The notes under the pieces: model-generated
The model's database searches: none
What the model saw: the letters and a program-made list of their open reading frames with translations, nothing else
What the model was told of the DNA's origin: nothing
Shown here: positions 8,141 through 35,314 of the stretch, piece after piece
Layout: every line of letters begins with the position of its first letter
Position numbering within the stretch: the first letter of the stretch is position 1
NCBI RefSeq assembly: GCF_039555335.1
Contig: NC_092647.1
Span: forward strand, 51,925,740-51,989,739
DNA length: 64,000 bases
Direction of reading: 5' to 3'
DNA from: Amphiura filiformis
Taxonomy: Eukaryota
Program-made: the position numbers and the translations under genes

Positions 8141-8204
8141 ATGAGATTGCGAAAAGTGAGCTTTCTTTTTACATTGCTGATATTTATTGAAATCTACGCC
8201 CAAG
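8141..8204 (+). CDS. Exon 1 (signal peptide) of GPCR paralog A, encoding MRLRKVSFLFTLLIFIEIYAQ plus 1 nt.
   Basis: ATG in gcaagATGa context. Classic n/h/c signal-peptide layout. Perfect donor CAAG|GTACGT. The phase-1 donor pairs with the phase-1 acceptor of the 10877 exon (g+AG gives GAG). Paralogous copy at 21989. Confidence 0.6.
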
Positions 8205-8569
8205 GTACGTTTTACGAGTGTGAATGTGAACGTTTCTGAGATTAAGGGTAGACGAGGTATTGTTGGTCGAAGCAGCCAAAACATCCATTCAGATGGTTTG
8301 TTATCTTGGTAACACAGCAAAAAAAAATCAAAATCTATTGTGCTCTGTTAACCTCGACCTAATTGTAACAAAACATCCAATACAATGCAATTTTTCTCAA
8401 TTTGATTCATTTTTGCCAAAGGAACAATTTGAGACCAGATGGATAAGGGAAGTGTGGTCATATGACACTTTGAGACGGCTAGCGTACCGGAGAGCGTACC
8501 GGTTGCCAAATTCGTCACCGTTACTGAATCTGCCGTGTCGCTAGCTCGTTTAAATCCATCGGACGCCGA

Positions 8570-9900
8570 AACACTTGGCCATGTGTGTAACGCTATGTAA
8601 CACTGAACTACCTCAATCAAAAATCACCAAGGATGAGAGAAAGGCTCTGTCGAAATTAACTATGGATGAAAACATCGCCAAAGTCCCGGCAGACAACGGC
8701 AAGTGTGTAGTGGTTTTGAACAAGTGTGAATATGATGACACGTGTAAGGGGTTACAGGAAAAAGGTAAATGAGTTTACTACTAAGATCCTTACTGAGAAA
8801 CCATAAACATCGATGACAAGAGACAGTTAGATCCCCTCTCTGAGCCAGCGGTAACTGCGTTTTATGGACTCCTGAAAATTCACAAACCAGAACCAATACC
8901 TGTCAGGCCCATTGTGAGTAGTATCGGATCTGTAACGTATAATCTCGCAAAGTACGCGGCTAAAATCTTAGGCCCCCTTTTTGGACAATCTCCGCACCAC
9001 ATCAAAAACACTCAAGAGTTTATTAACCGAATTAAGGATATCACATTAAGCGCAATAACATCGTATGACGTTAATACCGCTTTGTTCACGTGTATTCCAC
9101 CAGACTTTGCGCTGAAAGTTGTAAAGGAGTGTCTGAACAATGATACCACCTTGAGTGAACATGGTGAACGGACAAACCTTATGTAGATCAAATCGTGGAA
9201 CTCGTAAGCATCTGTTTTAATACCACCTATTTCTCCCATATCCCCAGTTAGCCCGATAGCCCCTGTGTATGGAAAGTTTCGAGCAGCAAGCCTTGCAACC
9301 ATATCCGGATGTTAAGCCTAGACTCTGGTTATGTCTCATCGACGATACCTTAGTGATTATTGAGTGCACCGAATTAGAAGGTTTCTTTCACATCAACATG
9401 CTAGACGACAACATCAAGTTTACCCAGGATAAGTGTAAAGACGACACACTAGCTTTCTTAGACTGTCTGATTAGTGTGAAGAACGATGGTTCGCTAACTT
9501 CAAAATTCACAGAAAACCCACGCACACTGATCATTATATACAATTTGGATCACATCACCCATTGATACACCAGTTGGAAGTAATAAGAACTCTACAATAC
9601 AGAGCAGATACCATCATAAGCGGGTGCGAACTTATTCCAGAGGAGAAAGACCACATCAAAGAATCGCTGAAGAACTGGGCTTTTCTGAAAGCCAACAAAA
9701 GTAGAAAAGACAAAAAACAGTTCAACCCAACAAAGCTTGCGTCACAATCCCATATGTAGCTGGACTGTCAGAACGTGTAAAGAAACACCTCAAAGCTTTT
9801 GGGATTTCCTCGTCGTTTAAGCCAAATAACACCCTACTTGGCAAGCTCGTACAAGTCAAAGACAAACAATCTAAAGAAAAACGCTCAAACTTAGTGTATG
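8570..9900 (+). mobile_element. Degenerate Penelope-like element (PLE) reverse-transcriptase region, broken by frameshifts, in intron 1 of GPCR paralog A.
   Basis: Translated fragments contain FYGLLKIHKPEPIPVRPIVSSIGSVTYNLAKY (the YGLPKIHK-type motif) and MLDDNIKFTQDK...LAFLDCLI. Confidence 0.55.
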
Positions 9901-10214
9901 GATTAGTGTGCTGTGACGCTGATTGTTCTGCTGCCTATGTTGGCAAAAAAACATAGCGACACACTAAAAAATATTTGAGATAACACGAACAATATTTCAA
10001 ACTTCAATAACACGAAAAAAGGCTGACACGAAAGAGACCTTACTAAATGCAATTACCCATGAAAATGTTTAGACACCTATGTAATTCCATTGGCCAATCA
10101 ACGCATAAAAATAAAAATATCGGGAAATAACACTATTTCAGGCAAATAATACTATACTCCCTTTAATCCTGTAGCCATTTTCTCAAATTACTTCACTGCA
10201 ATGAATAAAATGCC

Positions 10215-10300
10215 ACGGATTTTATTTTATTGGTGGTTCGGTAGTGCGAGCACTGGTCGGCAGTTCCGGAGGTCCTGGGTTCAAATACTGGTTAAGGATA
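10215..10300 (+). ncRNA. tRNA-derived SINE-like head (degenerate tRNA-like sequence, not a functional tRNA).
   Basis: A GGTTCAAAT box-B-like motif preceded by a D-arm-like GTAGTGCGAGCACTGG. The T-stem is not complementary. The paralogous copy at 30765-30845 belongs to the duplicated gene unit. Confidence 0.35.
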
Positions 10301-10876
10301 AGTTTTCTTTAATTAATAATTCAGACATTTACTAGTGGTTAGTGGCCGCGTCAGGGAATGAACACAGACGAGAGCTGTCACCATTGGGCCATGCACTCTC
10401 TAGTGTATGGGATATATCGGAGTAATATTGACATAATATTGTTTTATTATTATTTGTTACTAAAATGGGGGTTATAGCGCCCTCAACGTGCTACATGTAA
10501 AGACCGATTATAGAAAAATGGCCCTAAAATAAAAACGCCCCATTCATTTTTCCTCAAATTTTGCATAATTATGATGTATATAGATTTAACATCTGGAATG
10601 TAATACAAGTGGTGTCGTTGCTGCTCTTCTAATTCCATTTATAAAATGTCCGCCCCACCGTACCAAGATGCCCCGCCACCGATTAATTTTTTCGTACATC
10701 ATATTTGTAACGCATACGTGTTTGATCAAAATTTACAAAATGATGTACGAAAAAATAATCGCGCCCCGCCAAGGAATGAACACAGACGAGAGCTGTCACC
10801 ATGGGCCACGCACTCTCTAGTGTATGGGATATATCGGAGTAATGTTGACATATTTTTATTTTTATTATTATTTTAG

Positions 10877-13302
10877 AGTATGTTTACATCGGAGACGGGG
10901 AACTGGAAATTGCAGTCTGCCCAGAGCGTCATACGTCATGCCAGGAATGGTCATGTCCAGTGGATAAGTACGAACCTCTGTGCTATTGCATATCATCTAT
11001 ATGTCACCTATTCAATGATTGTTGCCTGGGAGCCTTATCCGAATGCTACGAGGATTCCGACATTCTGGCCGAAATCGAAGCTAAAATCGAGTCAAACGGT
11101 TTTACATCAGAAGATATCAGTTGCATTGATCCAACACATTATGCAGGTCCTTCATGGGGATATCAGATGATAGTAACTTGTAACAAAGCGTTCATAGATG
11201 AAGAAATCATCAGACACTGCACTAATGTCGCGAATAACGATGTTTATGGATCAATTCCTGTCACAGATATGGATGGTTTTACCTTTAGAAATGTTTTCTG
11301 CGCTCTCTGCAACTTTCGGGATATCACTAAACTATCTGTTTGGAGTGTTGACTTTATCTGCCCTCCTGAATCATTTAATACTTATATTGCAAACACATAC
11401 GATGTGTTGCATTACCTGGAGTCAGAATGCGATATCCAATACCATCTCCCTCACGATGTACATCCACTTCTAGTAGAGTTGTCGGCACGGCAATGTTTGA
11501 ATATTGACGTGATAGATAAATTAAGTTGCCGTAGATCCCATCCTGCGCATAAAGACTGCGCTGAATACACTGCTTATGTACAAATAAGTAATGGTTCTGA
11601 AGTTACATTCTTTAAAAATCCTCACTGTTTATTGTGCTACTTCAATCTTACTAGTTTTGATGAGTCCAATTTCAATATTCTGACCTGTGATTTTTGGGAG
11701 TTCCCAGGTTATGGTCTATGGCCTATGTTCAATCTCTTTCCAGATATGGAGAGTTATTCGTTGTATGCCCTTCCTATTTCAGTACTGTTAAACTTCGGCA
11801 GGATTAGTAGATTTGAAATAGTGCATGACTATGAATTGGTTACACACATGGAGATTGTTGAATGTCCCATTGGTCAGACTTACGATCCGTTTCAAGATAG
11901 ATGCCGCCGATTGGCTTGCCCGATTGGAATGGTGTTAGCTGGTGACACTTGTCTGTTTCCGTCGCATGCCAACAGAAATTGTCATGGCTCTGAAGGTCTG
12001 CTTAGTCTCACAATGTCAGTAAAATTCACCCAGAAGGACGTGAGTGTTTCAGAATTCTCAGAGTGTGTCCAAGAAACGTTAGATTTTAAGAATGACGCTT
12101 ATTTCAGTGTGTTCAATGCGTCTTTCAGCAATGGAACCCTGCAACTTGTATCGCCTGCTTTGGTTCCTCCAGGATATTTTAGTGAGTTAGAATCCACTTT
12201 GGACGAACACTTTGAGTCTATGATGAAAAGTGAAGATAAATTGTGCAAAATGTCCGAGATACAATTTGATATTGATTGTGCGCCAAGCGATATTCTGGAC
12301 CTTTGTTCCCAGCATAAGTATGATAAGGCTGCAAATAACTACATGCTGAACTTCGCCAATATCTTTGAAACTGAAAATTCTTCTCATCTTTTAGGACTTC
12401 AAGTAAAGTATTCCCAAAGCCCAGACGATGAATTCTTTCAGAAGTCTATTTCTATCATACAATGCGCGAATCAAAATACAAACCTATCATGTCCACTTCT
12501 TTCCTTTAATCGTACGCTGTTTCTGAGTGTACTAAACAAACCTGATTGGTTAGAATTCACTCCAACAGGTGTGCTGTTAAGTCCGGAGGAATATATCATA
12601 GGTTCCGATGATGAAATTCAGATTTGCTCCCTTCATGTTAGCACAATCAATAACAACACTAGATCAAATCTGGTATTTTATTCTGCAGCACAGGAAATTG
12701 TTGGCAATATATGTACGTCTGTGTCCCTCGTTAGCTGTACAATTACTTTCCTAACTATTTGTTTCTTCAAGTCATTACGCAACCGAGCCAGTCCTCTATT
12801 GCTTAATTTGGTCACTTCTCTCTTCCTTGCTGAATTCGTTTTAATTACCGGGGGTCATCAAACCCAACATCCTCAAGCCTGTGTTATGGTTGCCATACTA
12901 CTTCATTACTTTTGGTTATCTTCTTTCTCTTGGATGAATATCTTAGGATTTGACCTTTTCTTGACCTTTGGATCTGCAGATGCCTTCACTGCCCCAAAGA
13001 AGTTAGAAAAGAAATATTTATACATTTATTTGTCCTATGGGTGGGGTGTACCGTTGTCAGTTGTTGTACTTACAATTATACTTCACTCCTCTCAGTGTTC
13101 CACCTTATATGTTCAATATGGAGGGGAGGAAGCTTGCTGGATACAGAATGGTTGGGCAAATCTCATTCTCTTTGGTATTCCGGTTGCGATGATGATTGTA
13201 GTTAATACGTTATTTTATGTTGGTATTGTTTGGGGAATTTACAAATCGAGGTATGGCAACAGAAGAGTGGCTTCGGTGAAATATCTTATCATATATATGA
13301 AG
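10877..13302 (+). CDS. Exon 2 of GPCR paralog A, encoding the Cys-rich ectodomain plus TM1-TM5.
   Basis: Acceptor tattattattttag|AG. Open frame of 2426 nt, continuous with the ORF at 10960-13320. Family-B2 motifs are present: HYFWLSSFSWMNILGFDLFL (TM3), YGWGVPLSVV (TM4), ACWIQNG, FGIPVAMMIVVNTLFY (TM5). Donor ATGAAG|GTAATT at 13303. Confidence 0.8.
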
Positions 13303-13659
13303 GTAATTAGTGAAAAATAAAGAAACGAGTGCTTTAGGTCTGTTTAAAAAATCTTTATTGTATTTCTCTATGTAATGTGCGTTTTCCACTTTCTGCATGT
13401 CCAATCAGGATCATTTTAAAACTTTTTTTAGTGCAATGACAGCTATATTAATAAGAATTCCCTCTTATTGGTACTTTTAAAAGCAGTTTGGCATATTATG
13501 GTTGTTTTCGGGGTATATAGTTTGCGTGGCACTTTTTGCTGTTAATCGACAGTTTAATGTTAATTGAATTTAAAGATAGCAGACAATTAATTGAATTTAA
13601 AGATAGCAGGCAGCACAAATTAATATTATGCTGAAGCTGTGCCAGTGAAATAACCATCT

Positions 13660-14820
13660 CAAAAACAAGTAACTAACCCCCCTTAAATAATGGCCATTAT
13701 TCAGAAATAATCTGTAAAATGCGTTGGAAGCAGAATTTATTTCTGCACATTTTGACACCTCATTTGCAGCAATTGACTAATAAAATATTGACGTCACATC
13801 GTACATTTAAATCAATGTAACCCAAGATTTGAAAGTTGCAGTAAATTGTATTGCTTTTGTATTCAGTGTAATGGAAGGAAATCTGTGTAATGATATTTGA
13901 GTGTTTTTTGAATTGTAAAAATTTGTATGTACCCAGCAAACACAAAAACGTTTTTAAAACGTTTTAAATAAGTTATATTTTGGCTTTTGGTTTAGGTAAA
14001 AACGTTTTAATAACATCAAAATGTCGGGTTATATAAAGGTCATGATAACGTTTTAAAACGTTTTGTATGAAAACACACTAAAACAATATTTGTAAATGTT
14101 TTCAAAAAATGTTATTGTAAACTATTTTTGCAAACATTTTTGCCAAATATTGTGTCAATACTTAAATAACACTATGTTAAAATATTTGAACCCAGCAAAC
14201 ACAGAAATGTTCTTAGAATGTTTTTTTCAAAACCTTTTAATAACATTTAAATGTCGGGTTATATAAAGGTCATGAAAACGTTTTTAAAACGTTATTGAAA
14301 ATATTTTGGGCAAACATTTTTCGCAAAATATTTTTTCAACCCCAAAATAACATTCTGTTTAGAATGTTTCGTATCAAGTTTTCAAGAATGTTTTTGGAAT
14401 GTTATTAAAACGTTTTTATACCCTTTATATAACCCGACATTTAAATGTTTTCTGTAAAACATTTTGTTTGCTGAGCAGTAGATTATCAAAAAATGTTTTT
14501 TAAGGTTATGAAAACGTTTTATACTCTTAATATACTCTTTATATAACCCGACATTTAAACGTTTTCTGACAACCTTTTATAACCTTTTGCGAATGATGTC
14601 GAAAACGTTTTGTGTTTGCTGGGTAAGTGCAACTTTCAAATCTGGACCTCACTACATTAAATTGACCGGTGTTTTATTGTTTTCTGGGCTATCGTATCAA
14701 ACGAGGTGTCAAAATGCGCAGAAAAAAATTCTGCTTCCAACGTATTTTACAGATTTGTAATACAATAGCCCCTTTCTGAATAATGGCCATTATTTAAGGG
14801 GGGTTAGTTACTTTTTTTTG
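13660..14820. mobile_element. Large foldback element in intron 2 of GPCR paralog A, with inverted arms of about 150 bp and an internal array of AAAACGTTTT-containing units.
   Basis: The segment 13670-13790 is the reverse complement of 14690-14810. The interior repeats the units ...cgttttaaaacgtt... and ...ataccctttatataacccgacatttaaa... Related copies lie at 22380-22600. A foldback of the same type lies at 19960-20410. Confidence 0.6.
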
Positions 14821-15073
14821 AGATGTTTATAACATACGATAAAATACCGATACACGCTATGATACTAATCTATTTGCAAATATTCGTGGTATTTAGCGTT
14901 GATCTCCTTGTTTAATTCTTACTACTGTTCCCCTAAATTTACGTATATTAGCGACCCATAAAAGCTAACTAGATTTTTCCAAAGGGTTTTCTTCTTGCTG
15001 TATTTCCATATTTCTGTTCAATGTTATTATAACTAACAAGGTTCTTTTTTCTTCCATTCTTTATTTAATCCAG

Positions 15074-15556
15074 ATCTCGATACTAATGGGATTCACCTGG
15101 ATATTCGGCTATATAGCAACCTTCACTGGTATTGATGCTCTCTGGTTTGTATTTATCATCCTCAACTCATCTCAAGGGTTCTTCGTCTTGTTAGCCAACA
15201 CCTGTAATAGGCGTGTCTACAAATGTTATAGACAAGCACTCTGTGGACGAGGCAATAGAGTCAACCCCCAAATGGCACCAGAATTACCACAGCAACACCA
15301 TCTTCAACCACAATATCCAATAGAAAACGATGGCAAATCATTGTTTGCAGAAGCAATCAAGGAAGGGCAAGAGAGAGCACGAATCAAAGAAGTTAAGTAT
15401 GAGGATGCACATAAACCAATTGGATTCGACCCAGATAATCTACCATCTTCGTCTCGTGCAAGGCCATCTTTAGGCTATTTGTTTTCGCAAAATCTTTGTG
15501 AGCGGAGTCTGGTTATTCCAGTTGGAGATGCCGAAAGAGGACAATATGTACTCTAA
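15074..15556 (+). CDS. Exon 3 of GPCR paralog A, encoding TM6-TM7, the tail and the stop codon.
   Basis: Pyrimidine-rich acceptor ...ttctttatttaatccag|ATC. Phase 0, matching the donor at 13302. The junction reads KYLIIYMK|ISILMGFTWIFG, as expected for the family-B TM6 entry. Confidence 0.8.
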   Translation: MSILMGFTWIFGYIATFTGIDALWFVFIILNSSQGFFVLLANTCNRRVYKCYRQALCGRGNRVNPQMAPELPQQHHLQPQYPIENDGKSLFAEAIKEGQERARIKEVKYEDAHKPIGFDPDNLPSSSRARPSLGYLFSQNLCERSLVIPVGDAERGQYVL

Positions 15557-16439
15557 CTGTGTTGTGTGCTTCTGATCTTTTTTGGCCTCCACCAGAAATT
15601 TTGAGTGCAAGCCAGATCAAAAGCTTTCAAAAGCTATCGAAAACTTGTGTGCATTATAATAATATTATTATTAGGCAAAAAAAACAAGTTTGTTTCCTGT
15701 AGCGCGCGCATTACGTTTTTGACTGATTATTTTGCGAATTAGAATTTTTTTCACTTACAAAGAAAAAAATCGCAAAAAATAATATAAAACACAACTGGAG
15801 TGAACATTTACACAACAAACTAGCGTAGTGAAAGACTACTGGTGAATACATCACACATTTATTTAAATTTTTTTTTTTAATCTGCAGGTTGAAAAGGGAT
15901 CATTAATATTCTTGAATATGAAGAAATATGATTTTGTGTGTGTGTGTCGGAGAGACCCACAGAAATTCCCATTCCAATTTGCAGCAAAAAAGTTTTTGGT
16001 TTTTTTTTAAGACATGGATATATAAAAAAAAATTAAAAACCAATATTTCGCATTTAACTTTTTTGACTTGCTACAGGAAACTTGCTACAGGCCTAGGCTT
16101 AAGGTGTTTATCATTGTGATACCATTCCGGGAGTAAAGAAACTAAGGCTAAAGTGACCTTTGAACTGTTGGTCTGTACCATCTTTATTCGAATCCTGTGT
16201 GCATTCCCACTTAATCCCAGATAGTGAACATCCCGCTGTTTGCAAACTGCGAGGTGTGATGCGTAATTCTTTACATCGGAGTGTGAATACCAAATGATTT
16301 CTATGTCGGGCGATTTTCTTGCCAAATCCTTCCAAATCACGTAGTTGTTTCACAGATTCTTGTCCATAATTATTCCTTAAATCACTAAATAGATTCATCA
16401 GGTTTGTAGATATACAGTAAAATAATTTTCTTTTGCACA

Positions 16440-16990
16440 AAACCAAAATATTTTACTCACTTGACGGTTTCGCCTATCATGGTCGATAGGCATCATCAGA
16501 ATGATGTTGGATGATCCTTACTTCCGGTAGGACGTATCCCGACTGTAGAGGGTGTATTTACAGCCAGGAGAGGATCATTAGAGACTCGTCTAAAAGAACA
16601 CCAGAAAGAGACAGACAGGGTGTCAAAAACCAAATCAAATTACACCCGGCAAACCCGAAAACAATCAGCGAGTGAACAATCCAAGTCAGCTATAACAGAC
16701 CACGCAGTGCAACAAAATCATATCATCAATTGGGACAATGCCAAAATTCTTAGCAAGGAGTGTGATGCAAATGCCAGATATGTCAAAGAATCAATATGGA
16801 TCAGGAGACGAGGACCCAATGTCATGAATAGAGACGAGGGGCCCACTACCTTAGTCACGTGTATGATCCTCTCCTGGCTGTAAATACACCCTCTACAGTC
16901 GGGATACGTCCTACCGGAAGTAAGGATCATCCAACATCATTCTGATGATGCCTATCGACCATGATAGGCGAAACCGTCAAGTGAGTAAAA
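16440..16990 (+). mobile_element. Palindromic PLE-derived fragment (GIY-YIG C-terminal piece flanked by about 110-bp inverted repeats).
   Basis: Internal ORF encodes ...TRLKEH...AITDHAVQQNHIINWDNAKILSKECDANARYVKESIWIRR..NVMNRDEG, matching the endonuclease tail of the PLE at 46600-46830. The flank 16440-16560 is the reverse complement of 16880-16990. Confidence 0.5.
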
Positions 16991-17339
16991 TATTTTGGTT
17001 TTGTGCAAAAGAAAATTATTTTACATTACTTATAGTATTAATAGTATTTTAAACATGTTGTAAAGTTACACTGTAATTTGATTTATTTTGTAAGCATTGT
17101 ATTTATCTAAATTTGCAATTTTAATATTGTGTATTTGAATGTATGTAGTATTTTTAAAACCTTAATAATTATGTCATGTAAATGTTGTATTGATCCCTGG
17201 GTCTCAAGGAAGAACAGATTAATTGTGTATTCAACTGATTGAGTGTCCCAGGTTAAACAAGAAATAAAACAAACAAACAAAGACCATCCAAATAAAGACA
17301 CAATCACCAGAATTGAATTGCGATTAAGGACTGGAGTTG

Positions 17340-21900: not shown

Positions 21901-21988
21901 TGGTGGCGTTTGTGATCAGTATTATATATAATGGTTTATGTCTGGCCTTTTTTTTCAGTTTAACATACCTAATCCCCTGACGAGTAAG

Positions 21989-23399: not shown

Positions 23400-23790
23400 C
23401 AACTGGGGTAACAAATTGCGTCGATAAAGGGTATTATTGTTGGTCGAGGGCAGCAAAAAAAAGTAGTTCACAGCATCGTGCGAATGGTAGTGAGCTTTAG
23501 CAAAAATTGCATTGCTCAATTCATAGCGAGTGGGTAGAAGAATTCAAATATCACAGATATACTGATCGGTAGGTCTTGTGGTTCTTGAGTTATGTTGTAA
23601 AGAGGGCTGAAACAACAACGCTTTTGTAAAACATACATAACTCATTAACAACAATAAATTAAGCAAGTTTTCAAAGTATGATTTGTAGAATGAACTTTTG
23701 CAAAACACCAAAGTGTTATTTTTCAATAATATATTGATTCAGATAATGAAAATCGATTTTTTTTTGGCTGCTTCGACCAACAATACCTCG
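23400..23790. mobile_element. MITE family C, about 370 bp, with terminal inverted repeats GGTATTGTTGGTCGA(G/A)GCAGC.
   Basis: Copies at 22590-22950, 23400-23790, 45170-45530, 57600-57900 (partial) and 59400-59710. A terminal fragment lies at 8237-8283. Confidence 0.65.
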
Positions 23791-24575: not shown

Positions 24576-25322
24576 ATGGCAACTTTCAATATTCCAGCAC
24601 CTGCACAGCTGGATATGACAGCAACTAACCTTGCCGTAAGTTGGTTAAAATTCAAACAACGCTATGAAAACTTTGCACTAGCCACTGGTTGTATCAGCCA
24701 TGTCAGCCAGCCAGATGAAACACAAGTGGCTACACTTCTTTCAGTAATTGGACAGGAAGCAGTAGACACTTATAATACATTTGCATGGGCCAACGTCGGT
24801 GATGACAAGAAGATTGCCCCAGTATTAGCTAAATTTGAAGCGTTCTGCTCACCGAAGAAGAACGTAGTGTACGAGCGTTACATATTCAACTCGCGAATGC
24901 GCAAGGAAGGTGAGTCCATCGACTCATTTGCCACAAATCTCAAACTGTTATCTGACACTTGTGAGTTTGGTGCACTGAAGGAGTCCCTGATCATGGATAG
25001 AATCATCCTTGTTGGGTTACGCGATACGCGTATGAAGCAACGTCTAATGAACATTGACAAATTAACACTTGAAAAAGCCGTCAATCAGATTAGATCAGCA
25101 GAAACCGCTGCTGCACAGGTTAAACAGATAGATACGCCCAAACTGGAGCACGTCAAAGCAGTGCGACACAAAATCAAGCCCAGCACAAGCCACAGTCAAA
25201 CCCACAAACGCAACGACCCAAGTCAAAGCCACCCGCCAGTTGTTACTTGTGTGGAGGTCAGTACCCACACACTGGTGATTGCCCCGCTAAAGGAAAAAAA
25301 TTCAACTTTTGCGGTAAGATGA
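24576..25322 (+). CDS. gag: gag ORF of the LTR retrotransposon.
   Basis: ATG at 24576, immediately after the LTR and primer-binding site. Zinc knuckles (CX2CX4-5HX3-4C) lie at the gag-pol junction, in the pol frame. Confidence 0.6.
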   Translation: MATFNIPAPAQLDMTATNLAVSWLKFKQRYENFALATGCISHVSQPDETQVATLLSVIGQEAVDTYNTFAWANVGDDKKIAPVLAKFEAFCSPKKNVVYERYIFNSRMRKEGESIDSFATNLKLLSDTCEFGALKESLIMDRIILVGLRDTRMKQRLMNIDKLTLEKAVNQIRSAETAAAQVKQIDTPKLEHVKAVRHKIKPSTSHSQTHKRNDPSQSHPPVVTCVEVSTHTLVIAPLKEKNSTFAVR

Positions 25323-28300
25323 ATCATTACGCTAAAGTATGTAAACAAGCAAAGAAACAGCCAAACAATCGCGCTGCAGCTATTAGCAGTAACAAGTCAG
25401 ACTCTGAAGAAGACTACGCGTTTAGAATTACGTCTAATGAAGATAAACAACCTAGAGTAAACATACAAACGCAAGGATCAACACTGAATGTAATGATAGA
25501 CACTGGTACAGGTAAAAACATCATGAGCACAGAAACATTCAAGAACTTGAAAATCAGACCACAGCTAGAAAAAAGTCATGATGACAGACCACTTTATGGT
25601 TATGGTGGCAAGGCACCACTAGATGTTGTTGGCAGTTTTACATCACAGACAGCATACAATGATGTGGAGATTGCGACAACTTGGTATGTCGTAAAAGGTA
25701 ACAGAGGAACAGACTCTCTGTTAAGCTTCAGCAGTTCAAAGGAACTCGGTCTTGTTGCAATAACCTACAGTATTGCTAGTAATCTTAGTGAAGATGTGTT
25801 GCATAAATATGATGATCGATTCACCGGTATTGGTCAACTGAAGGATGCAAAATGCACCTTGCACATCGATACCAGTATACAGCCAGTCGCGCAGCCGCAT
25901 CGACGCATACCGTTTCACTTAAGACAGAAAGTAGCCGCTGAGTTGCAACGACTCCAAGACCTTGACATTATTGAACCTGCTGAGGATCAACCAACACCGT
26001 GGATCTCCCCATTAACAATCGTCACAAAGCCCAAAAAGCCTGATGAGATACGCATCTGTATTGATATGAGATCTGCTAACAAAGCGATACACCGAGAGAG
26101 ACATGTGACACCAACAATTGATGACATCGTCACACAAGTCAATGGTGCTGTTATGTTCTCAAAGCTTGACTTAAACTCAGGCTATCATCAAGTGGAGTTG
26201 GCACCTGAATCAAGATACATCACAACATTCTCCAGTCATGTTGGTTTATTCCGCTACAAACGCTTGAACTTTGGAGTTAGTTCAGCTGCTGAACAATTTC
26301 AGAACTTAATACAATCTGCGTTAGGAGGACTCAACGGAGTCCTGAACATAAGCGATGACATTCTTGTGTTCGGACACACAGAAGAGGAGCATGCTGCTAA
26401 TCTTGAAGCTTGCTTTGAACGTCTCCGCGCAAAGAACTTGACGCTCAATCGCGGCAAATGTGAACTGTTCCAGCGAAGAATTGAATTTTTCGGGCATATC
26501 TTTACAGACACAGGAATACAGCCAGATCCAAAGAAAGTATCTGCAATAACTAATGCTGCTGCACCTCAGAGCAAAGAGGAAGTCCACAGTCTTCTCGGTA
26601 TGGTAAACTATTGTGCAAGGTTCATTCCAAACCTTGCAATGCTTACTGATCCATTGCGCCAACTCATTAAAGACAACACTATCTGGACATGGACTGAAAC
26701 CCACCAGAACGCACTGCAGCAAATCAAGGACAAGCTAACTGCAGCAGAAACAATGTCATACTTCGATCCACAAAAGTCAACAGAAGTTATTGTGGATGCA
26801 AGCCCTGTTGGACTTGGAGCCATTCTAGTCCAGCATAGCATGACAGATCAGTCATCGTATGTAGTAGCGTATGCAAGCAGATCGCTAACTCCCACAGAAC
26901 AACGCTATTCGCAAATTGAACGCGAGGCACTTGCGGTAACTTGGGGCATTCGACACTTTCGTCTATTTCTCTATGGAAGCACGTTTCAAGTCATCACAGA
27001 TCATAAACCATTGCTCACTTTGTTTAACAATCCAGCAGCAAAGCCACCGCTACGCATAGAGCACTGGTTGATGAAAATACAGGAATACAGCTACCAGCTA
27101 CTGTACAAGCCAGGCAAGAACAATCCCGCTGACTTCCTATCAAGACACCCACTTCCAGAAAGTGCACATAAGACATCAGCAGAAGACTATGTCAATATGG
27201 TATCCCTCAATGCAGTTCCCAAGTCCATATCGCTAGAAGAGATACAGAATAACACTAAAGCAGATAAGCTACTGCAACTGTGCATGACTGCAGTTACGAC
27301 TGGTAATTGGCATCACGCGCGCACACAAGTACCACCAGATCAGATCCAAGAGTTTGAAAGCATTCACAAACTGCGCAATGATCTGACTGTTGACACGGAA
27401 CATGGCATACTCTTACGCGATCATCGCATTGTGCTACCACGTGAACTTCGTCAACGCACAATCAACATTGCACATGAAGGCCATCAAGGCATTGTAAAAA
27501 CTAAACAACTTTTGCGTGAGAAAGTGTGGTTCCCCGGCATTGACAATATGGTTGAAACCACAGTAGAAAAGTGCCTTCCCTGTCAAGTTACTACACCTGC
27601 GAAAGCTGTACATGAACCGCTCAAAATGACTGAACTCCCTGACTCCCCATGGACACATGTCAGTATCGACTTCAAAGATCTTCCGTCTGGAGATTACCTT
27701 CTCGTTGTCATCGATGACTACAGTAGATATCCAGAGGTAGACATTGTAAGTTCCACCAGCGCAAGATCAGTTATTCCAAAGCTAGACAGAATCTTTGCCA
27801 CCTTCGGTAGTCCGCAAGTTGTTCGCACAGACAACGGTCCACCGTTTAACAGCGCAGACTTCGCAGCATTCGCCGACTACATTGGATTCAAGCATCGTAA
27901 AATCACTCCCCTCTGGCCCCAAGCCAACGGCGAGGTTGAAAGAATGATGAGGAATCTCAAGAAACTATACAGAACAGCGATAGAAGAGAACCGCCCTTGG
28001 AAGCAAGCACTATACGCTTACCTTCGCAACTACCGTGCTACGCCTCACAGTACAACAGGTGTTCCCCCCGCAACCCTTCTCTTCCAACACAACTATCGCA
28101 CACGCCTACCAGAGACAATAACTGTAAAACAATCTGCACTTGACAAAAGTGTCAGACACAAAGATAAGAAAGAGAAACAACGCATGAAACGCAATGCAGA
28201 AAAACACAAGACATTCAGAAAGACTAAATTCCAAATTGGAGATGTTGTCCTAGTCAAACGCACAGGCATCATTCCCAATGCAGTCAGTCCATATCACAGT

Positions 28301-28582
28301 GAACCAGCTCAGATCACTATGATAAATGGCTGCATGATCACAGCAAGCAGAAATGGTGCAACAGTCACACGCAATGCATCATTCTTCAAACGTCTTAAGC
28401 ATCATAGCAATGACTCTGTGTCCCAATCAGACTTTGACCCTGATCCCTATGATGATCCCCCTGAAGACGACCAGCAACAGCCACCAGCAAATCCTCCAGC
28501 ACCAGCGCAGGTACCAGCTCGACGAAACCCAATGAGAAATCGTCAGCGCCCAGCTCATCTGCAAGATTTTGTGCTAGGATAA
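25247..28582 (+). CDS. pol: pol ORF encoding protease (DTGTG), reverse transcriptase (ISDDILVF), RNase H and integrase (HHCC finger HEGHQG...CLPCQ plus DDE core).
   Basis: A 1111-aa uninterrupted ORF whose 5' end overlaps gag in another frame. The domain order is typical of Gypsy. Confidence 0.8.
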   Translation: MCGGQYPHTGDCPAKGKKFNFCGKMNHYAKVCKQAKKQPNNRAAAISSNKSDSEEDYAFRITSNEDKQPRVNIQTQGSTLNVMIDTGTGKNIMSTETFKNLKIRPQLEKSHDDRPLYGYGGKAPLDVVGSFTSQTAYNDVEIATTWYVVKGNRGTDSLLSFSSSKELGLVAITYSIASNLSEDVLHKYDDRFTGIGQLKDAKCTLHIDTSIQPVAQPHRRIPFHLRQKVAAELQRLQDLDIIEPAEDQPTPWISPLTIVTKPKKPDEIRICIDMRSANKAIHRERHVTPTIDDIVTQVNGAVMFSKLDLNSGYHQVELAPESRYITTFSSHVGLFRYKRLNFGVSSAAEQFQNLIQSALGGLNGVLNISDDILVFGHTEEEHAANLEACFERLRAKNLTLNRGKCELFQRRIEFFGHIFTDTGIQPDPKKVSAITNAAAPQSKEEVHSLLGMVNYCARFIPNLAMLTDPLRQLIKDNTIWTWTETHQNALQQIKDKLTAAETMSYFDPQKSTEVIVDASPVGLGAILVQHSMTDQSSYVVAYASRSLTPTEQRYSQIEREALAVTWGIRHFRLFLYGSTFQVITDHKPLLTLFNNPAAKPPLRIEHWLMKIQEYSYQLLYKPGKNNPADFLSRHPLPESAHKTSAEDYVNMVSLNAVPKSISLEEIQNNTKADKLLQLCMTAVTTGNWHHARTQVPPDQIQEFESIHKLRNDLTVDTEHGILLRDHRIVLPRELRQRTINIAHEGHQGIVKTKQLLREKVWFPGIDNMVETTVEKCLPCQVTTPAKAVHEPLKMTELPDSPWTHVSIDFKDLPSGDYLLVVIDDYSRYPEVDIVSSTSARSVIPKLDRIFATFGSPQVVRTDNGPPFNSADFAAFADYIGFKHRKITPLWPQANGEVERMMRNLKKLYRTAIEENRPWKQALYAYLRNYRATPHSTTGVPPATLLFQHNYRTRLPETITVKQSALDKSVRHKDKKEKQRMKRNAEKHKTFRKTKFQIGDVVLVKRTGIIPNAVSPYHSEPAQITMINGCMITASRNGATVTRNASFFKRLKHHSNDSVSQSDFDPDPYDDPPEDDQQQPPANPPAPAQVPARRNPMRNRQRPAHLQDFVLG

Positions 28583-30906
28583 TTTGACTGAAAAAAAAAC
28601 AACTACAAATGTACATGTGTTTTTGTATGTCAATTTCACATACGTGTTTATGAAACCACACAAAAGTTATGTGGAATGTTCAGTGAAATTTTGGACACTT
28701 TTCCCCACAATAATCACATGTATGTATTTCTGTGAGCCAATTGATTTCATAACAAATTTTGAAAATTGTGTCACCAAATTTTAAGTGAACATTTGTGCAA
28801 AGAAATGCACCTGCTATTTAATTTCTGTGTGACAAGTTGGACACATGTAAAATCACATGGAATATGTGAAAACCATATAATTTTCTTGTATTGATCAGTT
28901 ACACTTCAACTACATGTAAATTTTCAGTACCACCTGGACTACACAATGTACATGTAAACCGCAATGTACAATGTACTCTGTATGTAAAACTCCCTACATG
29001 TATGTTCATGTGTAATCAAAGTGCACAATACCTGGCCACAGCTTGTAATTTTAAAGACTGAAAGTTAAAAAGACTTTAACTTGTTAAATTGGTAAACTAT
29101 GTAACACTATTGTACATGTGTTAAAGTGTTGACTTTATGAAACTGTTGAACAGTTTTCCCAGTTTAAGAAAGAAAAGACTTTCATGTTGTTATATGAACA
29201 CTCAAAATGCTCAGTGTTGTTTTGAAAAAAAAAACAAAACAAAGGTGAACAGTAAAGATGCAGTGAGTTTACACAACACTTAAAAAAAGGTTGAAAGAGA
29301 GACTATTGACAAAGAACAATGGCAAACTGAACATTTATCTTATTGAGTTAATTGAAACTGGAAAACCACCAGTATTTAATTTCTTCTGATCAAGGTTGAA
29401 ATATGCCAACCTGTATTTGAGTTGAACCTAATTTGCAAACTTTGAAGGCCACAAGTTTGAATCTTACATTTTGCATCAGATCATATTTAAGGGTAAATGA
29501 TCTCTCTAAAAAGATGGGAGAGATGTAGTGTCTTACACCATCTGATATTCATGTATCAGGATGTCAACCTTATGTATCTAACTTAATCTAAGATAGTATG
29601 TCAACCCTGTGTGAAACGGCACTCAAGAATAAGAACATGTCTGAGTCACAACATCATATTTGTGTGTCTGATTAACTACATTATAATTCCGAATGAAAGA
29701 ATCATGTGAATTAGACGATCTTTAGCTTGTTTTCGTTGCTAAAAAGGATTCAATTATGTTTCACCGTTATTCATCACCGAATAACGGCGAAACATGATTG
29801 AATCCCGAAATGAAATATCACGAAAAGAGTCTCATATGAGGTGCGCTTGTAGATTGACGGTGACGTTACTATCAACTCGACGTAATAACAGTCCTGTACA
29901 ATGATTTTATAAAGTCGATAATATATTATCGACTTTCATCACATGGGCGCAGCCATTTGCAGTTGGCGCCAAGTTGTCTGGCATGTGGCTTGAAGCTCTG
30001 CGGGTGGTCTTCCTGTAGTTTTCAATGGCAAGAGAGTAACTGTGGCCATTTTTCTGCTTATAGAAAATTGTATTTTGTGCTAATTTAAAACAATATTGTA
30101 TTCTCTCGATAACTTTTTTAATCTTTCGACAAAAATTTTACAAATATTGTTTTGTGCATTGTATGTGAAATTTAGAATCACCCAGTGCTCAGAATTTTTG
30201 CCGTAAGCGGTTTATCAAAAATTCATGATTCATTTTCAAAATTCTCCTATTCATTTGTGTGTGCAGCTGAAAATCATACAGCCATCTGACAATGGGTGGT
30301 CTGCTAATGGCTGCCTCCATGAGCTCTACTCGATAATATATTATCGACCAGGACTGAATAACGTCTTCACGAAAAAAGTAACGATACAATATTTCAAAAA
30401 GAGACCACCCTTATTACTCAGGAAATGTCGCAATTCACCTTTTCGGTACATCCCATAAGCCTTTGCGAGTACACCTGAGAACTCGTCATTTGACGTCACG
30501 CCGATCTGCACCGATGCGCACATCGATTATCGAACATCGTTACTGTGCATTACAAGTCAGCGTGACGTAAAATGACGAGTTCTCAGGTCTACTCGCAAAG
30601 GCTTATAGGATTTACCAAAAAGGTGAATTAAATGCAATTACTCGAGCAAAATGTTAGGCAATCATGTAATTCCATCGGGTAATCAACGCATTGAAAATAA
30701 TGGGAAATAGCACAAGGTCAGGCAAATATACTGCTTCACTGAAATGAATAAAATATCACGAGTTTTCTCGGTGGCTTGGTTCTGCGAGCAGATGTCAGCA
30801 GTTCTGGCGGTCCCGGGTTCAAATACTGGTTAGGGTTAAGAGCTCTCACTCTCTAGTGTATGGAATACATCGGAGTAATATTGACATAATATTTGTTTTA
30901 TTTTAG

Positions 30907-33389
30907 AGTATGTTTATATCGGAGACGGGGAACTGGAAGTTACAGTTTGTCCAGAGCGTCATACGTCATGCCAGGAATTGGGGTCATGTCCAGGAGATAA
31001 GTACGAACCTTTGTGCTACTGCATATCATCTATATGTCACCTATTCAATGATTGTTGCCTAGGAGCTTTATCCGAATGCTACAAGGATTCCGACATTCTG
31101 ACCGAAATCGAAGCTAAAATCGAGTCAAACGGTTTTACATCAGATGATATCAGCTGCATTGATCCAACACATTATGTAGGTCCCTCATGGGGATATCAGA
31201 TGATAGTAACGTGTAACAAATCGTTCACAGATGAAGAAATAATCAGACACTGCACTAATGTCGCGAATAACGATGTTTATGGATCAATTCCTGTCACAGA
31301 TATGGATGGTTTTACCTTTAGAAATGTTTTCTGCGCTCTCTGCAACTTTCGGGATATCACTAAGCTATCTGTTTGGAATGTCAAGTTTATCTGCCCTCCT
31401 GATTCATTTAATACTTATATTGCAAACACATACGATGTATTGCATTATCTGGAGTCAGAATGCGATATCAAATACCATTTCCCTGACGGTGTACATCCCC
31501 TTCTAGTAGAGTTATCGAGAAGGCAATGTTTGAATGTTGACGTGATTGATGAATTAAGTTGCCGTAGATCTCATCCTGCGCATAAAGACTGCGCTGAATA
31601 CACCGCTTATGTACAAATAAGTAATGGTTCTGAAGTTACATTCTTTAAAAATCCTCACTGCGTATTGTGTTACTTCAATCTTACAAGTTTTGATGAGTCC
31701 AATTTCAATAATCTGACCTGTGATTTTTGGGAGTTCCCAGGTTATGGTCTATGGTCTATGTTCAATCTCTATCCAGACACGGGGAGTTATTCGTTTTATG
31801 CCCTTCCTATTTCAGTACTGTTAAACTTCGGCAGGATTAGTAGTTTTGCGATAGTCCACAACAATGAATTAGTTACACACACTGAGGTTGTTGAATGTCC
31901 CATTGGTCAGACTTACGATCCGTTTCAAGATAGATGCCGCCGATTGATTTGCCCGATTGGAATGGCGTTAGCTGGTGACACTTGTCTGTTTCCGTCGCGT
32001 GCCAACAGAAATTGTCATAGCTCTGAAGGTCAGCTTAATCTCACAATGTCAGTAAAATTCACCCAGAAGGACGTGATTGTTTCAGAATTCTCAAAGTGTT
32101 TCCAAGAAACGTTAGATTTTAAGAATGGGGCATATTTCAGTGTGTTCAGTGAGTCTTTCAGCAATGGAACCCTGCAACTTGTGTCGACTGCTTTGGTTCC
32201 TCCAGGATATTTTAGTGAGTTAGAGTTCATTTTGAACGATCACTTTAAGTCTATGATTAAAGGTGAAGATAAATCGTGCAAAATGTCCGAGATACAATTT
32301 GATATTGTTTGTGAGTCAAGCGGTATTACAGACTTTTGTTCTCAGCATAAGTATGATAAGGCTGCAAATAATTACACGTTGAACATCGCCAATATCTTTG
32401 AAACTGAAAATTCCTCTCATCTATTAGGACTTCAAGTAAAGTATTCCCAAAGCCCAGACAATGAATTCTTTCAGAAGTCCATTTCAATCATACAATGCGC
32501 GAATCAATATGCAAACTTGTCATGTCCACTTCTTTCCTTTAATCGTACGCTGTTCCTGAGTGTACTAAACAAACCTGATTGGTTAGAATTCACTCCAACA
32601 GGTGTGCTGTTAAGTCCTGAGGAATATATCATAGCTTCCGATGATGAAATTCAGATTTGCTCCCTTCATGTTAGCACAATCAATAACAGCACCAGACCAA
32701 CGGCTGTATTTCATTCGACAGCACAAGAAATTGTTGGGCATATCTGTACGGCTGTATCCCTCGTCGGTTGTACCATTACTTTCCTAACTATCTGTTTCTT
32801 CAAGTCATTACGCAACCGAGTCAGTCCTCTATTGCTTAATTTGGTCACTTCTCTCTTCCTTGCTGAATTCGTTTTAATTACCGGGGGCCATCAAACGCAA
32901 CATCCTCAAACCTGTGTAATGGTTGCCATACTACTTCATTACTTTTGGTTATCTTCTTTCTCTTGGATGAATATCTTAGGATTTGACCTTTTCTTGACCT
33001 TTGGATCTGCAGATGCCTTCACTGCCCCAAAGAAGTTAGAAAAGAAATATTTATATAAGTATTTGACCTATGGGTGGGGTGTATCGTTGTCGGTTGTTGT
33101 ACCTACATTTATACTTCACTCCTGTCAATGTTCCGCCATATATGTTCAGTATGGAGGGGAGGAAGCTTGCTGGATATACAATGGTTGGGCAAACCTTATA
33201 CTCTTTGGAATCCCGGTTGCGATGATGATTGCAGTTAATACGGTATTTTATGTTGGCATCGTTTGGGGAATATGCAAATCGAGATATGACAACAGAAGAG
33301 TGACGTCTGGCAATGCTGAAGTCAGCAATACAGTCCGTCAGAAGGAACGTGCAAGGACGTCGTTAAAATATCTCATCATATATATAAAG
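30907..33389 (+). CDS. Exon 2 of GPCR paralog B, encoding the ectodomain plus TM1-TM5.
   Basis: Acceptor tgttttattttag|AG is conserved with paralog A. The frame is open from the acceptor. In-frame 3-nt indel relative to A (ELGSCPGD versus EWSCPVD). A further in-frame block of about 18 codons lies in ICL3 before the donor AAAG|GTAAAC. Confidence 0.8.
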
Positions 33390-33697
33390 GTAAACATTTT
33401 TTAATGATAGTAGTAAAAAGTAAAAAAAAGATAAGAAAAGGAGGGCGGACATTGAAATAAGAAATCGTATTTCTTTTTGTTAATTATGTGCGTTTTCCAC
33501 TTTCTGCATTTCCAATCAGGAACATTTCCAATCTTTAAAAAAACAAGTTGCGTGACACTACCAGAAATTCATTAATTGTGGCTGTTAATTTCTAGATAAC
33601 AGGACACATATTGAGCATAAACATTATGCTGAAAATGTAATATCTGTAAAACAGTTCTGACATACGTGCCTCCAGTACATAAATTTTTGGTTCACCT

Positions 33698-33868
33698 CAG
33701 ATTCGGTAGTGACATCAATGTTTTTTCGTGATTGAGTTGCAAGCGTCCCGATAAACCGCACTGTACGCGTGCTTGTACGCTTTTTGCGAATGACTTAACG
33801 CACATGATTCAATACTGCGACAAGCGAAATACGCCCCTAAGTCACTACCAAACATGAGGCGCACCAAA
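33698..33868. mobile_element. Palindromic MITE of about 170 bp (TCGGTAGTGAC...GTCACTACCAAA).
   Basis: An inverted copy lies at 55188-55370. Half-copies are fixed upstream of each GPCR terminal exon (1-110 and 14830-14900). Confidence 0.55.
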
Positions 33869-34308
33869 GAATAATCATTCTATTTGCAACGAATTATGGT
33901 AATTAGCGTTGCCCTTCTCATTGATTCTTCCTATCTGTAAATTGTTCAGTTCAGTTCAGTTTTATTTTCATCTCAACACACATACATATAAATAACATGA
34001 TATAGAAAAAAACCATTTTGTAATAAATTAGTAACAATGCAATGCCAAATAATTTATAATTGAGATATCAATATTAATATTACAAAATAATATTTTAATA
34101 ATGTGGTATGAGAGATGTGGATGCCACAGAAACGCAAAGCGTGTAAAGTTGTGGCACCCATTTGAAGGTTACAGACAAGTCTATAGCTTAAATACAATAT
34201 TCGATATTTATAAGGTTACAAATTCTATGAATGCCATAGACAGACAACATAAAGTCCGAAAAATCAATGAAGCATAAAATGCGAACTAAAGCAGCGCATG
34301 TAAATCCA

Positions 34309-34790
34309 TCATGCAGGAGAAAGCACTTTAAACATCATCATGTAAATATCCATTGATGAGGTTTTGTTTGAATGTTTTTTTAAATACTGTAGGAGACAGG
34401 GTGAGTTTAAGGGATTGGTCAAGATCATTCCAGAGGAGAGCACCATGTGTTTTGATGGTGTTGCTAGCAAAAACCGTATTAAATAATTGGATGTGAAAGT
34501 CTTTAGAATGTCTGGTATCGTGTGTATGGATGTCGTCATTAGTAGTAAAGAAGTTGTCGTAGAGGTCATTTTGTAATGAAATTTATGCATAAAAATTGCT
34601 GTTTGAAATTTGAATATGTCATGGATCTTAAGGGCATTTAATTGGTGGAAAAGTGGGTCAGTGTGGGCGAGCCATAAAGAATTTGTGCACGTCCTAACAA
34701 CTCGTTTTTGTAGGAGAAAAAGAGAATCTTGAAAATTGTTTTTCCAAGGGCTTTCTTTCTCGCTGTAAAAGCGAGAATTCGCTTGAATGT
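34309..34790 (-). mobile_element. 3' fragment of the same LINE family, inserted in intron 2 of GPCR paralog B.
   Basis: The minus-strand ORF contains LQKRVVRTCTNSLWLAHTDPLF, homologous to MQKKIIRTCTYSLWLDHSTPLF of the LINE at 5530-5600. The segment is absent from the corresponding introns of paralogs 0 and A. Confidence 0.5.
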
Positions 34791-34831
34791 TATATATCAA
34801 GTTGTCTTCTTCCATTCTTTATTTAATCCAG

Positions 34832-35314
34832 ATCTCGATACTAATGGGATTCACCTGGATATTCGGCTATATAGCAACCTTCACTGGTATTGATGCTCTC
34901 TGGTTTATATTTATCATCCTCAACTCATCTCAAGGGTTCTTCGTCTTCTTAGCCAACACCTGCAATAGGCGTGTCTACAAATGCTATAGACAAGCACTCT
35001 GTGGACGAGGCAATAGAGTCAAACCGGAACTGGCACCAAAACTACCACAGCAACACCATCTTCAACCACAATATCCAATAGAAAACGATGGCAAATCATT
35101 GATTGCAGAAGCAATCAAGGAAGGGCAAGAGAGAGCACGAATCAAAGAGGTTAAGTATGAGGATGCACATAAACCAATTGGATACGACCCAGATAATCTA
35201 CCATCTTCGTCTCGTGCAAGACCATCTTTAGGATATTTGTTCTCGCAAAATCTTTGTGATCGGAGTCTGGTTATTCCAGTCGGAAATGCCGAAAGAGGAC
35301 AATCTGTACTTTAA
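34832..35314 (+). CDS. Exon 3 of GPCR paralog B, encoding TM6-TM7, the tail and the stop codon.
   Basis: Acceptor tttaatccag|ATC is identical to the other two paralogs. Encodes ISILMGFTWIFGY...NSSQGFFVFLANTC. Confidence 0.8.
   Translation: MSILMGFTWIFGYIATFTGIDALWFIFIILNSSQGFFVFLANTCNRRVYKCYRQALCGRGNRVKPELAPKLPQQHHLQPQYPIENDGKSLIAEAIKEGQERARIKEVKYEDAHKPIGYDPDNLPSSSRARPSLGYLFSQNLCDRSLVIPVGNAERGQSVL

Follow-up and report, generated by a model that had tools for sequence, protein, structure and literature searches.

Tandemly duplicated genes of the brittle star Amphiura filiformis probably encode somatomedin-B-bearing, GAIN-less class-B receptors catalogued as Methuselah-like

Which kind of receptor is encoded by the large-exon genes at positions 8141-35314 of a stretch of Amphiura filiformis DNA (contig NC_092647.1; all 64,000 nucleotides of the stretch are referred to here as the window), and is this receptor peculiar to one lineage, as an original prediction made from the sequence alone had proposed? 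The analysis described here indicates that these are probably tandemly duplicated, protein-coding echinoderm genes for class-B G-protein-coupled receptors (GPCRs) that bear a somatomedin-B module, lack a GAIN domain and belong to the receptors catalogued as non-arthropod Methuselah/Methuselah-like (Mth/Mthl). They are new paralogs of a known, functionally uncharacterised family and are not new in kind, further paralogs of this receptor family being expected in an echinoderm genome.

The window is AT-rich (33-45% GC), contains retrotransposons and carries on its plus strand two long open reading frames (ORFs) at 10960-13320 (786 residues) and 30978-33404 (808 residues), each having a smaller ORF (156-175 residues) some 1.5-1.8 kb beyond it, and a similar third small ORF lies at 210-740. 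Two complete three-exon class-B GPCR genes were delineated on this strand, gene A at 8141-15556 and gene B at 21989-35314, and their products of 990 and 1009 residues are 87.6% identical to each other. Exon 1 of gene A (8141-8204), read from the sequence, comprises the ATG and the signal peptide MRLRKVSFLFTLLIFIEIYAQ and ends in a phase-1 donor (G|gtacg); a stretch of ~150 nucleotides here is 85.5% identical to the exon-1 region of gene B, the translated exon 1 of which (21989-22052) likewise holds the ATG and a signal peptide, MELQKVSFLFTLLIFIEIYAQ. Exon 2 of gene A (10877-13302) encodes the entire ectodomain, transmembrane helices (TM) 1-5 and a shortened third intracellular loop (ICL3), and has 92.5% nucleotide identity to exon 2 of gene B (30907-33389; residues 22-849), which was assigned to the ectodomain, TM1-TM5 and ICL3 from the ORF, its translation and hydropathy. 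Exon 3 carries TM6-TM7 and the C-terminal tail, stop codon included, at 15074-15556 in gene A (from the ORF and its translation) and at 34832-35314 in gene B, where TM6-TM7 extend to ~34984 and the tail ends in -QSVL (from the ORF, its translation and hydropathy).

All four introns (8204>10877 and 13302>15074 in gene A, 22052>30907 and 33389>34832 in gene B) are bounded by GT..AG and keep the frame, in phase 1 and then in phase 0, at the junctions that had been predicted. The join between exons 2 and 3 was matched residue for residue in a RefSeq homolog from A. filiformis, P0002 (...VIYAKISILMGFTWIFGYIA...), and the start of exon 2 coincides exactly with the start of sequence conserved in the same homolog (EYLYVGDG), so that the predicted splice joins are confirmed in silico and by homology. 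The ORF-based predictions of many relatives stop at "…IYxKV", a read-through of the same phase-0 donor; together with the P0002 join this indicates that the giant exon and its 3' intron are family-wide features. The arrangement in three exons, one of them giant, which had been regarded as atypical and as a sign of lineage specificity, is real but is not a local novelty. At least three paralogs with this layout had been expected. Two are complete, and the third, copy 0, is present only as a last exon encoding TM6-TM7 and the C-terminal tail (258-740, plus strand; stop codon TAA at 738-740), detected by tblastn with the gene B protein at 87% identity; its acceptor could be read directly at 258 (...tttaatccag|ATCTCA), and the remaining exons of this upstream paralog lie outside the window. 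The same tblastn search over the window returned no additional copies downstream of gene B.

The Pfam search for 7tm_2 (PF00002) that had been suggested with the original prediction gave matches in both proteins, scoring 98.2 and 104.5 bits and thus far above the cut-off of 20.6 (E-values of 6e-28 and 7e-30), and no other domain was matched in the Pfam scan of the window proteins. In gene B the match spans residues 629-887, TM1-TM5 and ICL3 being placed at 32718-33389 (plus strand) from 7tm_2 and hydropathy, and all 34 of the 34 aligned homologs match 7tm_2 as well. Each of the seven-transmembrane (7TM) motifs listed earlier for this locus (SWMNILGFDLFL, YGWG, ACW, GFTWIFG and NSSQGFFVF) was found in the translation, and conservation across the family alignment extends to the Cys pair linking TM3 and the second extracellular loop (ECL2), the Trp of this loop, the TM6 motif GFTW and the TM7 motif NSxQG. 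A sequence search of the PDB yielded 23 matches up to E=10, all of them adhesion GPCRs, with ADGRL3 best (6e-23) and L2, G6, E1, D1, L4, E5, G2 and others following; no secretin-family receptor was among them. Since the PDB matches are exclusively adhesion GPCRs and the motifs are conserved, the class-B2, adhesion-type assignment of the helical core made in the original prediction is correct. A secretin-type (class B1) identity was considered and rejected, since Pfam gave no HRM match and the PDB matches contained no B1 receptor. In the alignment with ADGRL3, where alone this was seen, the class-B His of TM2 and Glu of TM3 of latrophilin (…IHKNL… and …FLEGVQLY…) are both Leu in gene B, at ~668 and ~712 (…LLLNL… and …NILGFDLF…), which may represent the paired loss of a conserved polar contact.

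Other protein searches, with the full protein and with an alignment of 34 sequences, gave one weak match confined to the 7TM, and the family was reached only when 1.84 billion cluster representatives (50% clustering) were searched exhaustively by HMMER with the ectodomain alone. This search identified 193 proteins at E≤1e-3 and 48 at E≤1e-10, the best match (44% identical) being from A. filiformis. Thirty relatives were looked up, each of which is either named 'uncharacterized protein' or nameless; they include echinoderm proteins from a brittle star (Amphiura), sea stars (Acanthaster, Asterias, Patiria), sea urchins (Diadema, Lytechinus) and a sea cucumber (Apostichopus), and proteins from the hemichordate Glandiceps, the cephalochordate Branchiostoma and the brachiopod Lingula. 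The annelid Capitella also has a homolog with the same ectodomain. With homologs spread over so many groups, the family is old, and the proposal of a lineage-specific family does not hold, the same ectodomain occurring in four echinoderm classes as well as in the other groups named.

At the N terminus of the ectodomain, the Pfam Somatomedin_B model is matched at E≤0.01 by 17 of the 34 homologs (best 9e-9), in an N-terminal position wherever positions were reported. The window copies themselves give no match to this model (PF01033) at E≤1; they keep the Cys framework, with the Asp of the CxCD motif replaced by Ser or Ile, and the somatomedin-B-like Cys module of gene B was placed at residues 36-79 (30948-31079, plus strand) by column-by-column alignment with the homolog segments. 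The view that the ectodomain resembles no known N-terminal module of adhesion GPCRs and is unassigned is thus borne out in that none of the usual modules was detected, and has to be amended in that the N terminus appears to be of somatomedin-B type.

The ancient Mth/Mthl family was defined by 7TM phylogeny and reciprocal BLAST (de Mendoza, Jones and Friedrich, 2016; PMC4768249) and ranges over cnidarians, annelids, molluscs, echinoderms, hemichordates and cephalochordates, with none in vertebrates and with repeated expansions including one in sea urchin (PMC4768249). A Somatomedin B column is given for the listed Mth/Mthl members in Table S3 of that study, and the Methuselah_N domain is reported there to be arthropod-specific (PMC4768249). 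The hidden Markov model (HMM) of the window-family ectodomain matched members in the supplement of PMC4768249 at 1e-73 (Spur_XP_011660493), 2.7e-68 (Skow_XP_006821924), 2.1e-56 (Ctel_216805) and 1e-49 (Skow_XP_006818657), and matched none of the arthropod Mth/Mthl among the supplement sequences; Methuselah_N (PF06652) was not matched in Pfam by the window proteins or by the 34 homologs. The 7TM comparison was made by similarity scores, with ADGRL2 and ADGRL3 as the human adhesion sequences; here five Mth/Mthl members, two from Skow and one each from Spur, Daphnia and Capitella, gave the gene B 7TM scores of 160, 135, 127, 110 and 108 bits, and ADGRL3 gave 85 bits. Since both the ectodomain HMM and the 7TM match sequences listed in PMC4768249, the window genes are assigned to the family named Mthl.

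The members from Amphiura, Asterias and Patiria have near-consecutive RefSeq accessions on the same chromosome or scaffold, which indicates that the family as a whole is probably clustered in tandem. Its size, these arrays and the added N-terminal modules make environmental sensing or immunity a reasonable candidate for an alternative role of these same receptors. In its stricter form, this alternative holds that the tandem-arrayed receptors serve environmental, chemosensory or non-self recognition and not developmental or hormonal signalling. It draws on the large number of representatives at 50% clustering, on the clustered members in the three genera, on the extra binding modules (LDLa, SRCR) at the N terminus of some members, on the extracellular part evolving fastest and on the repeated lineage-specific expansions, sea urchin included (PMC4768249). 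However, the ratio of nonsynonymous to synonymous divergence (dN/dS) is below 1 wherever measured, in a comparison of one paralog pair (gene A and gene B), and the characterised insect relative binds an endogenous secreted ligand, so that the stricter form is considered unlikely.

The Nei-Gojobori estimates for this pair are dS 0.15, dN 0.05 and dN/dS 0.34, with regional dN/dS values of 0.25 in the 7TM, 0.27 in the N-terminal ectodomain and 0.54 in the C-terminal ectodomain. The overall and 7TM ratios, together with exons that are ~92% identical while the introns have diverged to the point of being mostly unalignable, argue for purifying selection, and on these sequence comparisons the duplicates appear to be of moderate age, reflecting neither very recent copying nor decay. 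The proposed recent expansion is accordingly upheld for the local duplication, which is moderately recent, and not for the family itself, which is old. Gene A has an in-frame deletion of 18 residues in ICL3 (13240-13290, …NRRV|ASVKYL…) relative to gene B (33300-33389, …NRRVTSGNAEVSNTVRQKERARTSLKYL…), the homologs having the long form. The paralogs diverge chiefly near the membrane, in the proximal part of the ectodomain and in ICL3, so that the two receptors probably differ in ligand or coupling properties. The C termini of copy 0 (729-737) and gene B (35303-35311) read -QSVL, which resembles a class-I PDZ ligand, and that of gene A (15545-15553) reads -QYVL; a PDZ-ligand reading of the C-terminal -SVL was rejected, the motif not being conserved in homologs from other species.

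One or more of the copies could instead be decaying duplicates (unprocessed pseudogenes). The ICL3 residues missing from gene A and its deviating C terminus, the full-length long terminal repeat (LTR) retrotransposon within intron 1 of gene B and the rise of dN/dS to 0.54 over the C-terminal ectodomain half could all be read in this way. However, the ~3-kb reading frames of both genes are free of stop codons and frameshifts, every splice signal is intact, every invariant residue of the family is kept, the Cys framework included, and the ICL3 deletion itself preserves the frame. Decay also accords poorly with the low dN/dS (0.34 for the whole protein, 0.25 for the 7TM; dS 0.15), and with exons that remain 92% identical between unalignable introns, and is therefore regarded as very unlikely.

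A GAIN domain directly N-terminal of TM1 is the distinguishing feature of adhesion GPCRs (PMC12716839), and the original prediction had raised the possibility that the receptors of the window are GAIN-less or carry a divergent GAIN. No GPS or GAIN match was obtained in Pfam for any of the 34 homologs (0/34), and the members from amphioxus and hemichordates likewise gave none. When the ~250 membrane-proximal residues were searched as a profile, no match was found among 177,635 PDB sequences, GAIN structures included, and no GAIN of an adhesion GPCR or polycystin was among the 60 matches listed in either of two further searches. The possibility raised is thus in line with Pfam, the PDB profile and the fold searches, none of which detected GPS or GAIN. 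The canonical CxCxHLT is absent from the window proteins and from the family alignment, as had been stated. The degenerate GPS-like C-x-x-H claimed in its place lies at a plausible position: the window sequence reads ...EIQICSLHVST..., its ICSLHVST falls at the spacing from TM1 of the HL|T of ADGRL3, and V622 aligns 16 residues past the start of the ADGRL3 chain. Most family members nevertheless lack the His, the family consensus being IQVCSFxxxNGTxNxT with no conserved His and no L-T/S pair, and C-x-x-H, considered as a GPS remnant, was therefore rejected as a conserved motif. The stalk that follows, SLHVSTINNSTRPTAVFHS, is hydrophilic, contains N-x-S/T sequons, is disordered in both predicted models and has no strand beyond the last Cys; a hydrophobic tethered agonist of the form TxFxxLM was not found in it. 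That these are canonical adhesion GPCRs in which a divergent, functional GAIN with a cryptic GPS (…ICSLH|VST…) cleaves itself and exposes a non-canonical tethered agonist is highly improbable when set against these results, even though latrophilins are the solved structures nearest to the 7TM, CSLHVST lies at the TM1 distance at which ADGRL3 has HL|T, a beta-rich subdomain precedes it, and two hallmarks of adhesion GPCRs, the toggle Trp (GFTW) and the Cys-Trp of ECL2, are retained.

The assignment to somatomedin-B-bearing, GAIN-less Mth/Mthl receptors has several observations weighing against it. The family 7TM profile gives 138 bits for Esup, 124 for Tcas, 118-119 for human ADGRL2/3, 113 for Dmel Mth, 109 for Mthl10 and 99 for Mthl1, and the gene B 7TM scores 85 bits with ADGRL3 versus 54 with Dmel Mthl10. 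As these scores show no preference for arthropod Mthl over ADGRL2/3, the label 'Methuselah-like' rests on the published 7TM tree, and the choice between it and 'GAIN-less adhesion' stands on the phylogeny of PMC4768249. The arthropod relatives behind the mechanistic analogy have unrelated ectodomains, none of them matching the ectodomain profile. The AlphaFold confidence of the juxtamembrane region is moderate, and this region may in the model conceal a strongly degenerate remnant of GAIN-B. Finally, the ICL3 deletion may alter or impair G-protein coupling of gene A.

The N terminus is of a secretory-pathway, type-I kind, and a glycosylated stalk of ~20 residues joins the disulfide-rich, glycosylated ectodomain to TM1. 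Such a GAIN-less Mth/Mthl receptor would be expected to remain one chain with no autoproteolytic split, and to be activated by a secreted or matrix protein or peptide binding to the ectodomain; the signal would reach the 7TM by way of the stalk, or by the ectodomain and 7TM touching directly, and would go on from there to heterotrimeric G proteins. Local duplication followed by purifying selection would have left paralogs that probably diverge in ligand or coupling. Such a ligand-to-G-protein mode is most likely, by analogy, to resemble that of insect Mist/Mthl1 with Fog: secreted Fog activates Mist/Mthl1, and RhoGEF2 is reached by way of G-alpha-12/13 (Concertina) (PMC6794076), and Mthl10 is linked with growth-blocking peptide in the titles and abstracts of publications.

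The ectodomain has a length of ~600 residues with 34 Cys and 12 N-x-S/T sequons, so that its richness in both, as noted originally, is evident and its length exceeds the ~560 residues given then. Downstream of the somatomedin-B-like module, profile-profile self-alignment identified two copies of a Cys-rich module of ~70 residues (…[FY][RK]NxxCAxCN…C), at residues 119-186 of gene B (31197-31400, ...FRNVFCALCN...C, with a predicted local distance difference test (pLDDT) score of ~90) and residues 233-295 (31539-31727, ...FKNPHCVLC...C), which are homologous to each other (profile-profile probability 96%, E 4.9e-9); no PDB relative of this duplicated module was found. A small Cys knot follows at residues 352-391 (31896-32015, CPxGxxYDPFxxxCRxLxCPxGxxLxxxxC), defined by four invariant Cys in the family alignment; it is EGF/TNFR-like by eye, has short beta-hairpins in the AlphaFold model and has no Pfam match. 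A beta-alpha-beta-beta-alpha-beta (ferredoxin/SEA-like) domain was placed at residues 398-490 (32034-32312) and, from the predicted model, a beta-rich juxtamembrane subdomain at residues 503-606 (32349-32660), ending at the last conserved Cys (...EIQIC). The hydrophilic stalk, rich in N-glycosylation sites, comprises residues 607-625 (32661-32717; pLDDT <50) and was delimited with the ADGRL3 and family alignments; all of these features are on the plus strand. The Pfam models EGF, TNFR, SEA, HRM, Methuselah_N, GPS and GAIN gave no match in the window proteins, and Foldseek returned nothing from the PDB at E≤1e-3. SEA-type autoproteolysis was rejected, no conserved G|S turn being present in the family alignment.

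Some homologs have extra N-terminal modules, P0025 with two LDLa matches and P0103 with SRCR. The Acanthaster protein P0008 shows an activin-receptor-like Cys pattern, by eye only, and homolog P0003 contains six tandem copies of the segment 'DYQYIGEGDLAHVSSNGE', which in the window genes forms the very start of exon 2.

It is tentatively proposed, with more doubt than confidence, that the ~550 residues between the somatomedin-B module and TM1 constitute an ancient bilaterian extracellular unit, structurally undescribed, in which the duplicated Cys module ('xRNxxCAxCN'), for which no solved relative is known, is succeeded by the ferredoxin/SEA-like domain at the position of GAIN. If this is true, this branch of adhesion-type receptors swapped or never gained the GAIN/tethered-agonist switch and uses another juxtamembrane module, possibly sensitive to force or proteases like other SEA-like domains, and has since expanded strongly in echinoderms.

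An apparently intact retrotransposon of Ty3/Gypsy type lies within intron 1 of gene B at 24381-29692 (plus strand), with LTR segments of 169 nucleotides (24381-24549 and 29524-29692) that are 98% identical, a gag-like ORF at 24468-25322 and a pol ORF at 25247-28582 (1111 residues) with reverse transcriptase, RNase H and integrase domains; this insertion is the main reason why intron 1 is longer in gene B (8.9 kb) than in gene A (2.7 kb). A retrotransposon of the long interspersed nuclear element (LINE) type separates copy 0 from gene A, at 2869-5617 (plus strand), with an endonuclease/exonuclease/phosphatase domain at 2869-3567 and a reverse transcriptase at 3668-5617. Just downstream of gene A there is an inverted repeat of 162 nucleotides with 100% identity and a 284-nucleotide spacer (16417-16578 and 16863-17024), and a second inverted pair of 107 nucleotides is 82% complementary (19977-20083 and 20286-20392); both pairs may be foldback elements, elements resembling miniature inverted-repeat transposable elements or an assembly artefact. 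An ORF of 326 residues at 45971-46951 (plus strand) has a weak GIY-YIG match (E 3e-4, under the Pfam cut-off) and may derive from a Penelope-like element, as its endonuclease end. The minus strand carries two tandem copies of a multi-exon gene, at ~37149-48351 and ~53618-62719, with pairs of near-identical exon ORFs (for example 43712-44077 and 58009-58413, or 48067-48351 and 62387-62719) and an MFS_1 match in two exons (E 2e-5); it resembles a duplicated major-facilitator transporter gene, which indicates that local tandem duplication extends beyond the GPCR genes.

Assignment of the window genes to the Mth/Mthl family ties a sizeable set of echinoderm, hemichordate, amphioxus and brachiopod RefSeq entries named 'uncharacterized protein' to a named receptor family and supplies a domain map for it, consisting of the somatomedin-B module, the duplicated Cys module, the Cys knot and the ferredoxin/SEA-like domain. 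It also exposes a conflict of classification, the same kind of receptor having been called 'Adhesion' in 2008 and 'Methuselah-like' in 2016, with a 7TM equally similar to both. The remaining interest of the locus lies in the undescribed architecture of the ectodomain and in a natural adhesion-type 7TM that has a large ectodomain but no GAIN, GPS or Stachel, so that these receptors could serve as comparators for dependence on the tethered agonist.

Among known systems, latrophilins (ADGRL1-3) provide the best solved match to the 7TM (E 6e-23, ~30% identity) and share the TM3-ECL2 Cys pair, GxTWxFG in TM6 and NSxQG in TM7. In contrast to them, the window genes have no RBL, OLF, HormR or GAIN modules, no GPS motif and no TNFAVLM tethered agonist, have the class-B His (TM2)/Glu (TM3) pair replaced by Leu/Leu and are built of three exons. 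ADGRA1 (GPR123) has almost no ectodomain, as opposed to the ~600 extracellular residues of the window receptors. The ADGRA subfamily is absent from the 23 PDB matches, and no specific 7TM relationship to it was seen in them. What is shared with ADGRA1 is an adhesion-type 7TM without GAIN, this receptor being described as an atypical vertebrate adhesion GPCR without a GAIN domain (PMC12324398).

In amphioxus, an expansion of ten 'Adhesion' GPCR genes with Somatomedin B and Kringle domains has been described (Nordstrom et al., 2008; PMC2246102). These resemble the window genes in that both come from invertebrate deuterostomes and place a module of somatomedin-B type ahead of the class-B 7TM, and the amphioxus homolog P0085 (B. 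belcheri XP_019637887) has somatomedin-B and 7tm_2 and nothing else in Pfam. The likeness of the 2008 set is one of architecture; it differs in being filed under Adhesion and in the presence of Kringle, which was seen neither in the window genes nor in the scanned homologs.

Drosophila Methuselah, Mthl1/Mist and Mthl10 are similar in being class-B, GAIN-less 7tm_2 receptors and in having a Cys-rich ectodomain, to which secreted ligands bind in the insect. The 7TM of Drosophila and other arthropod Mthl is related (99-138 bits with the family profile), Dmel Mthl1 scoring 46 bits with gene B versus 20 with ADGRL3. The closest correspondence is with the non-arthropod Mth/Mthl receptors (Spur_XP_011660493, Skow_XP_006821924 and Ctel_216805), which share the whole architecture, an N-terminal module of somatomedin-B type and the lack of GAIN, except that the annelid member leaves profile positions 339-512 unmatched and so lacks the ferredoxin/SEA-like domain in the middle. 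Nothing essential separates these receptors from those of the window, and the window genes are best described as further echinoderm paralogs of them.

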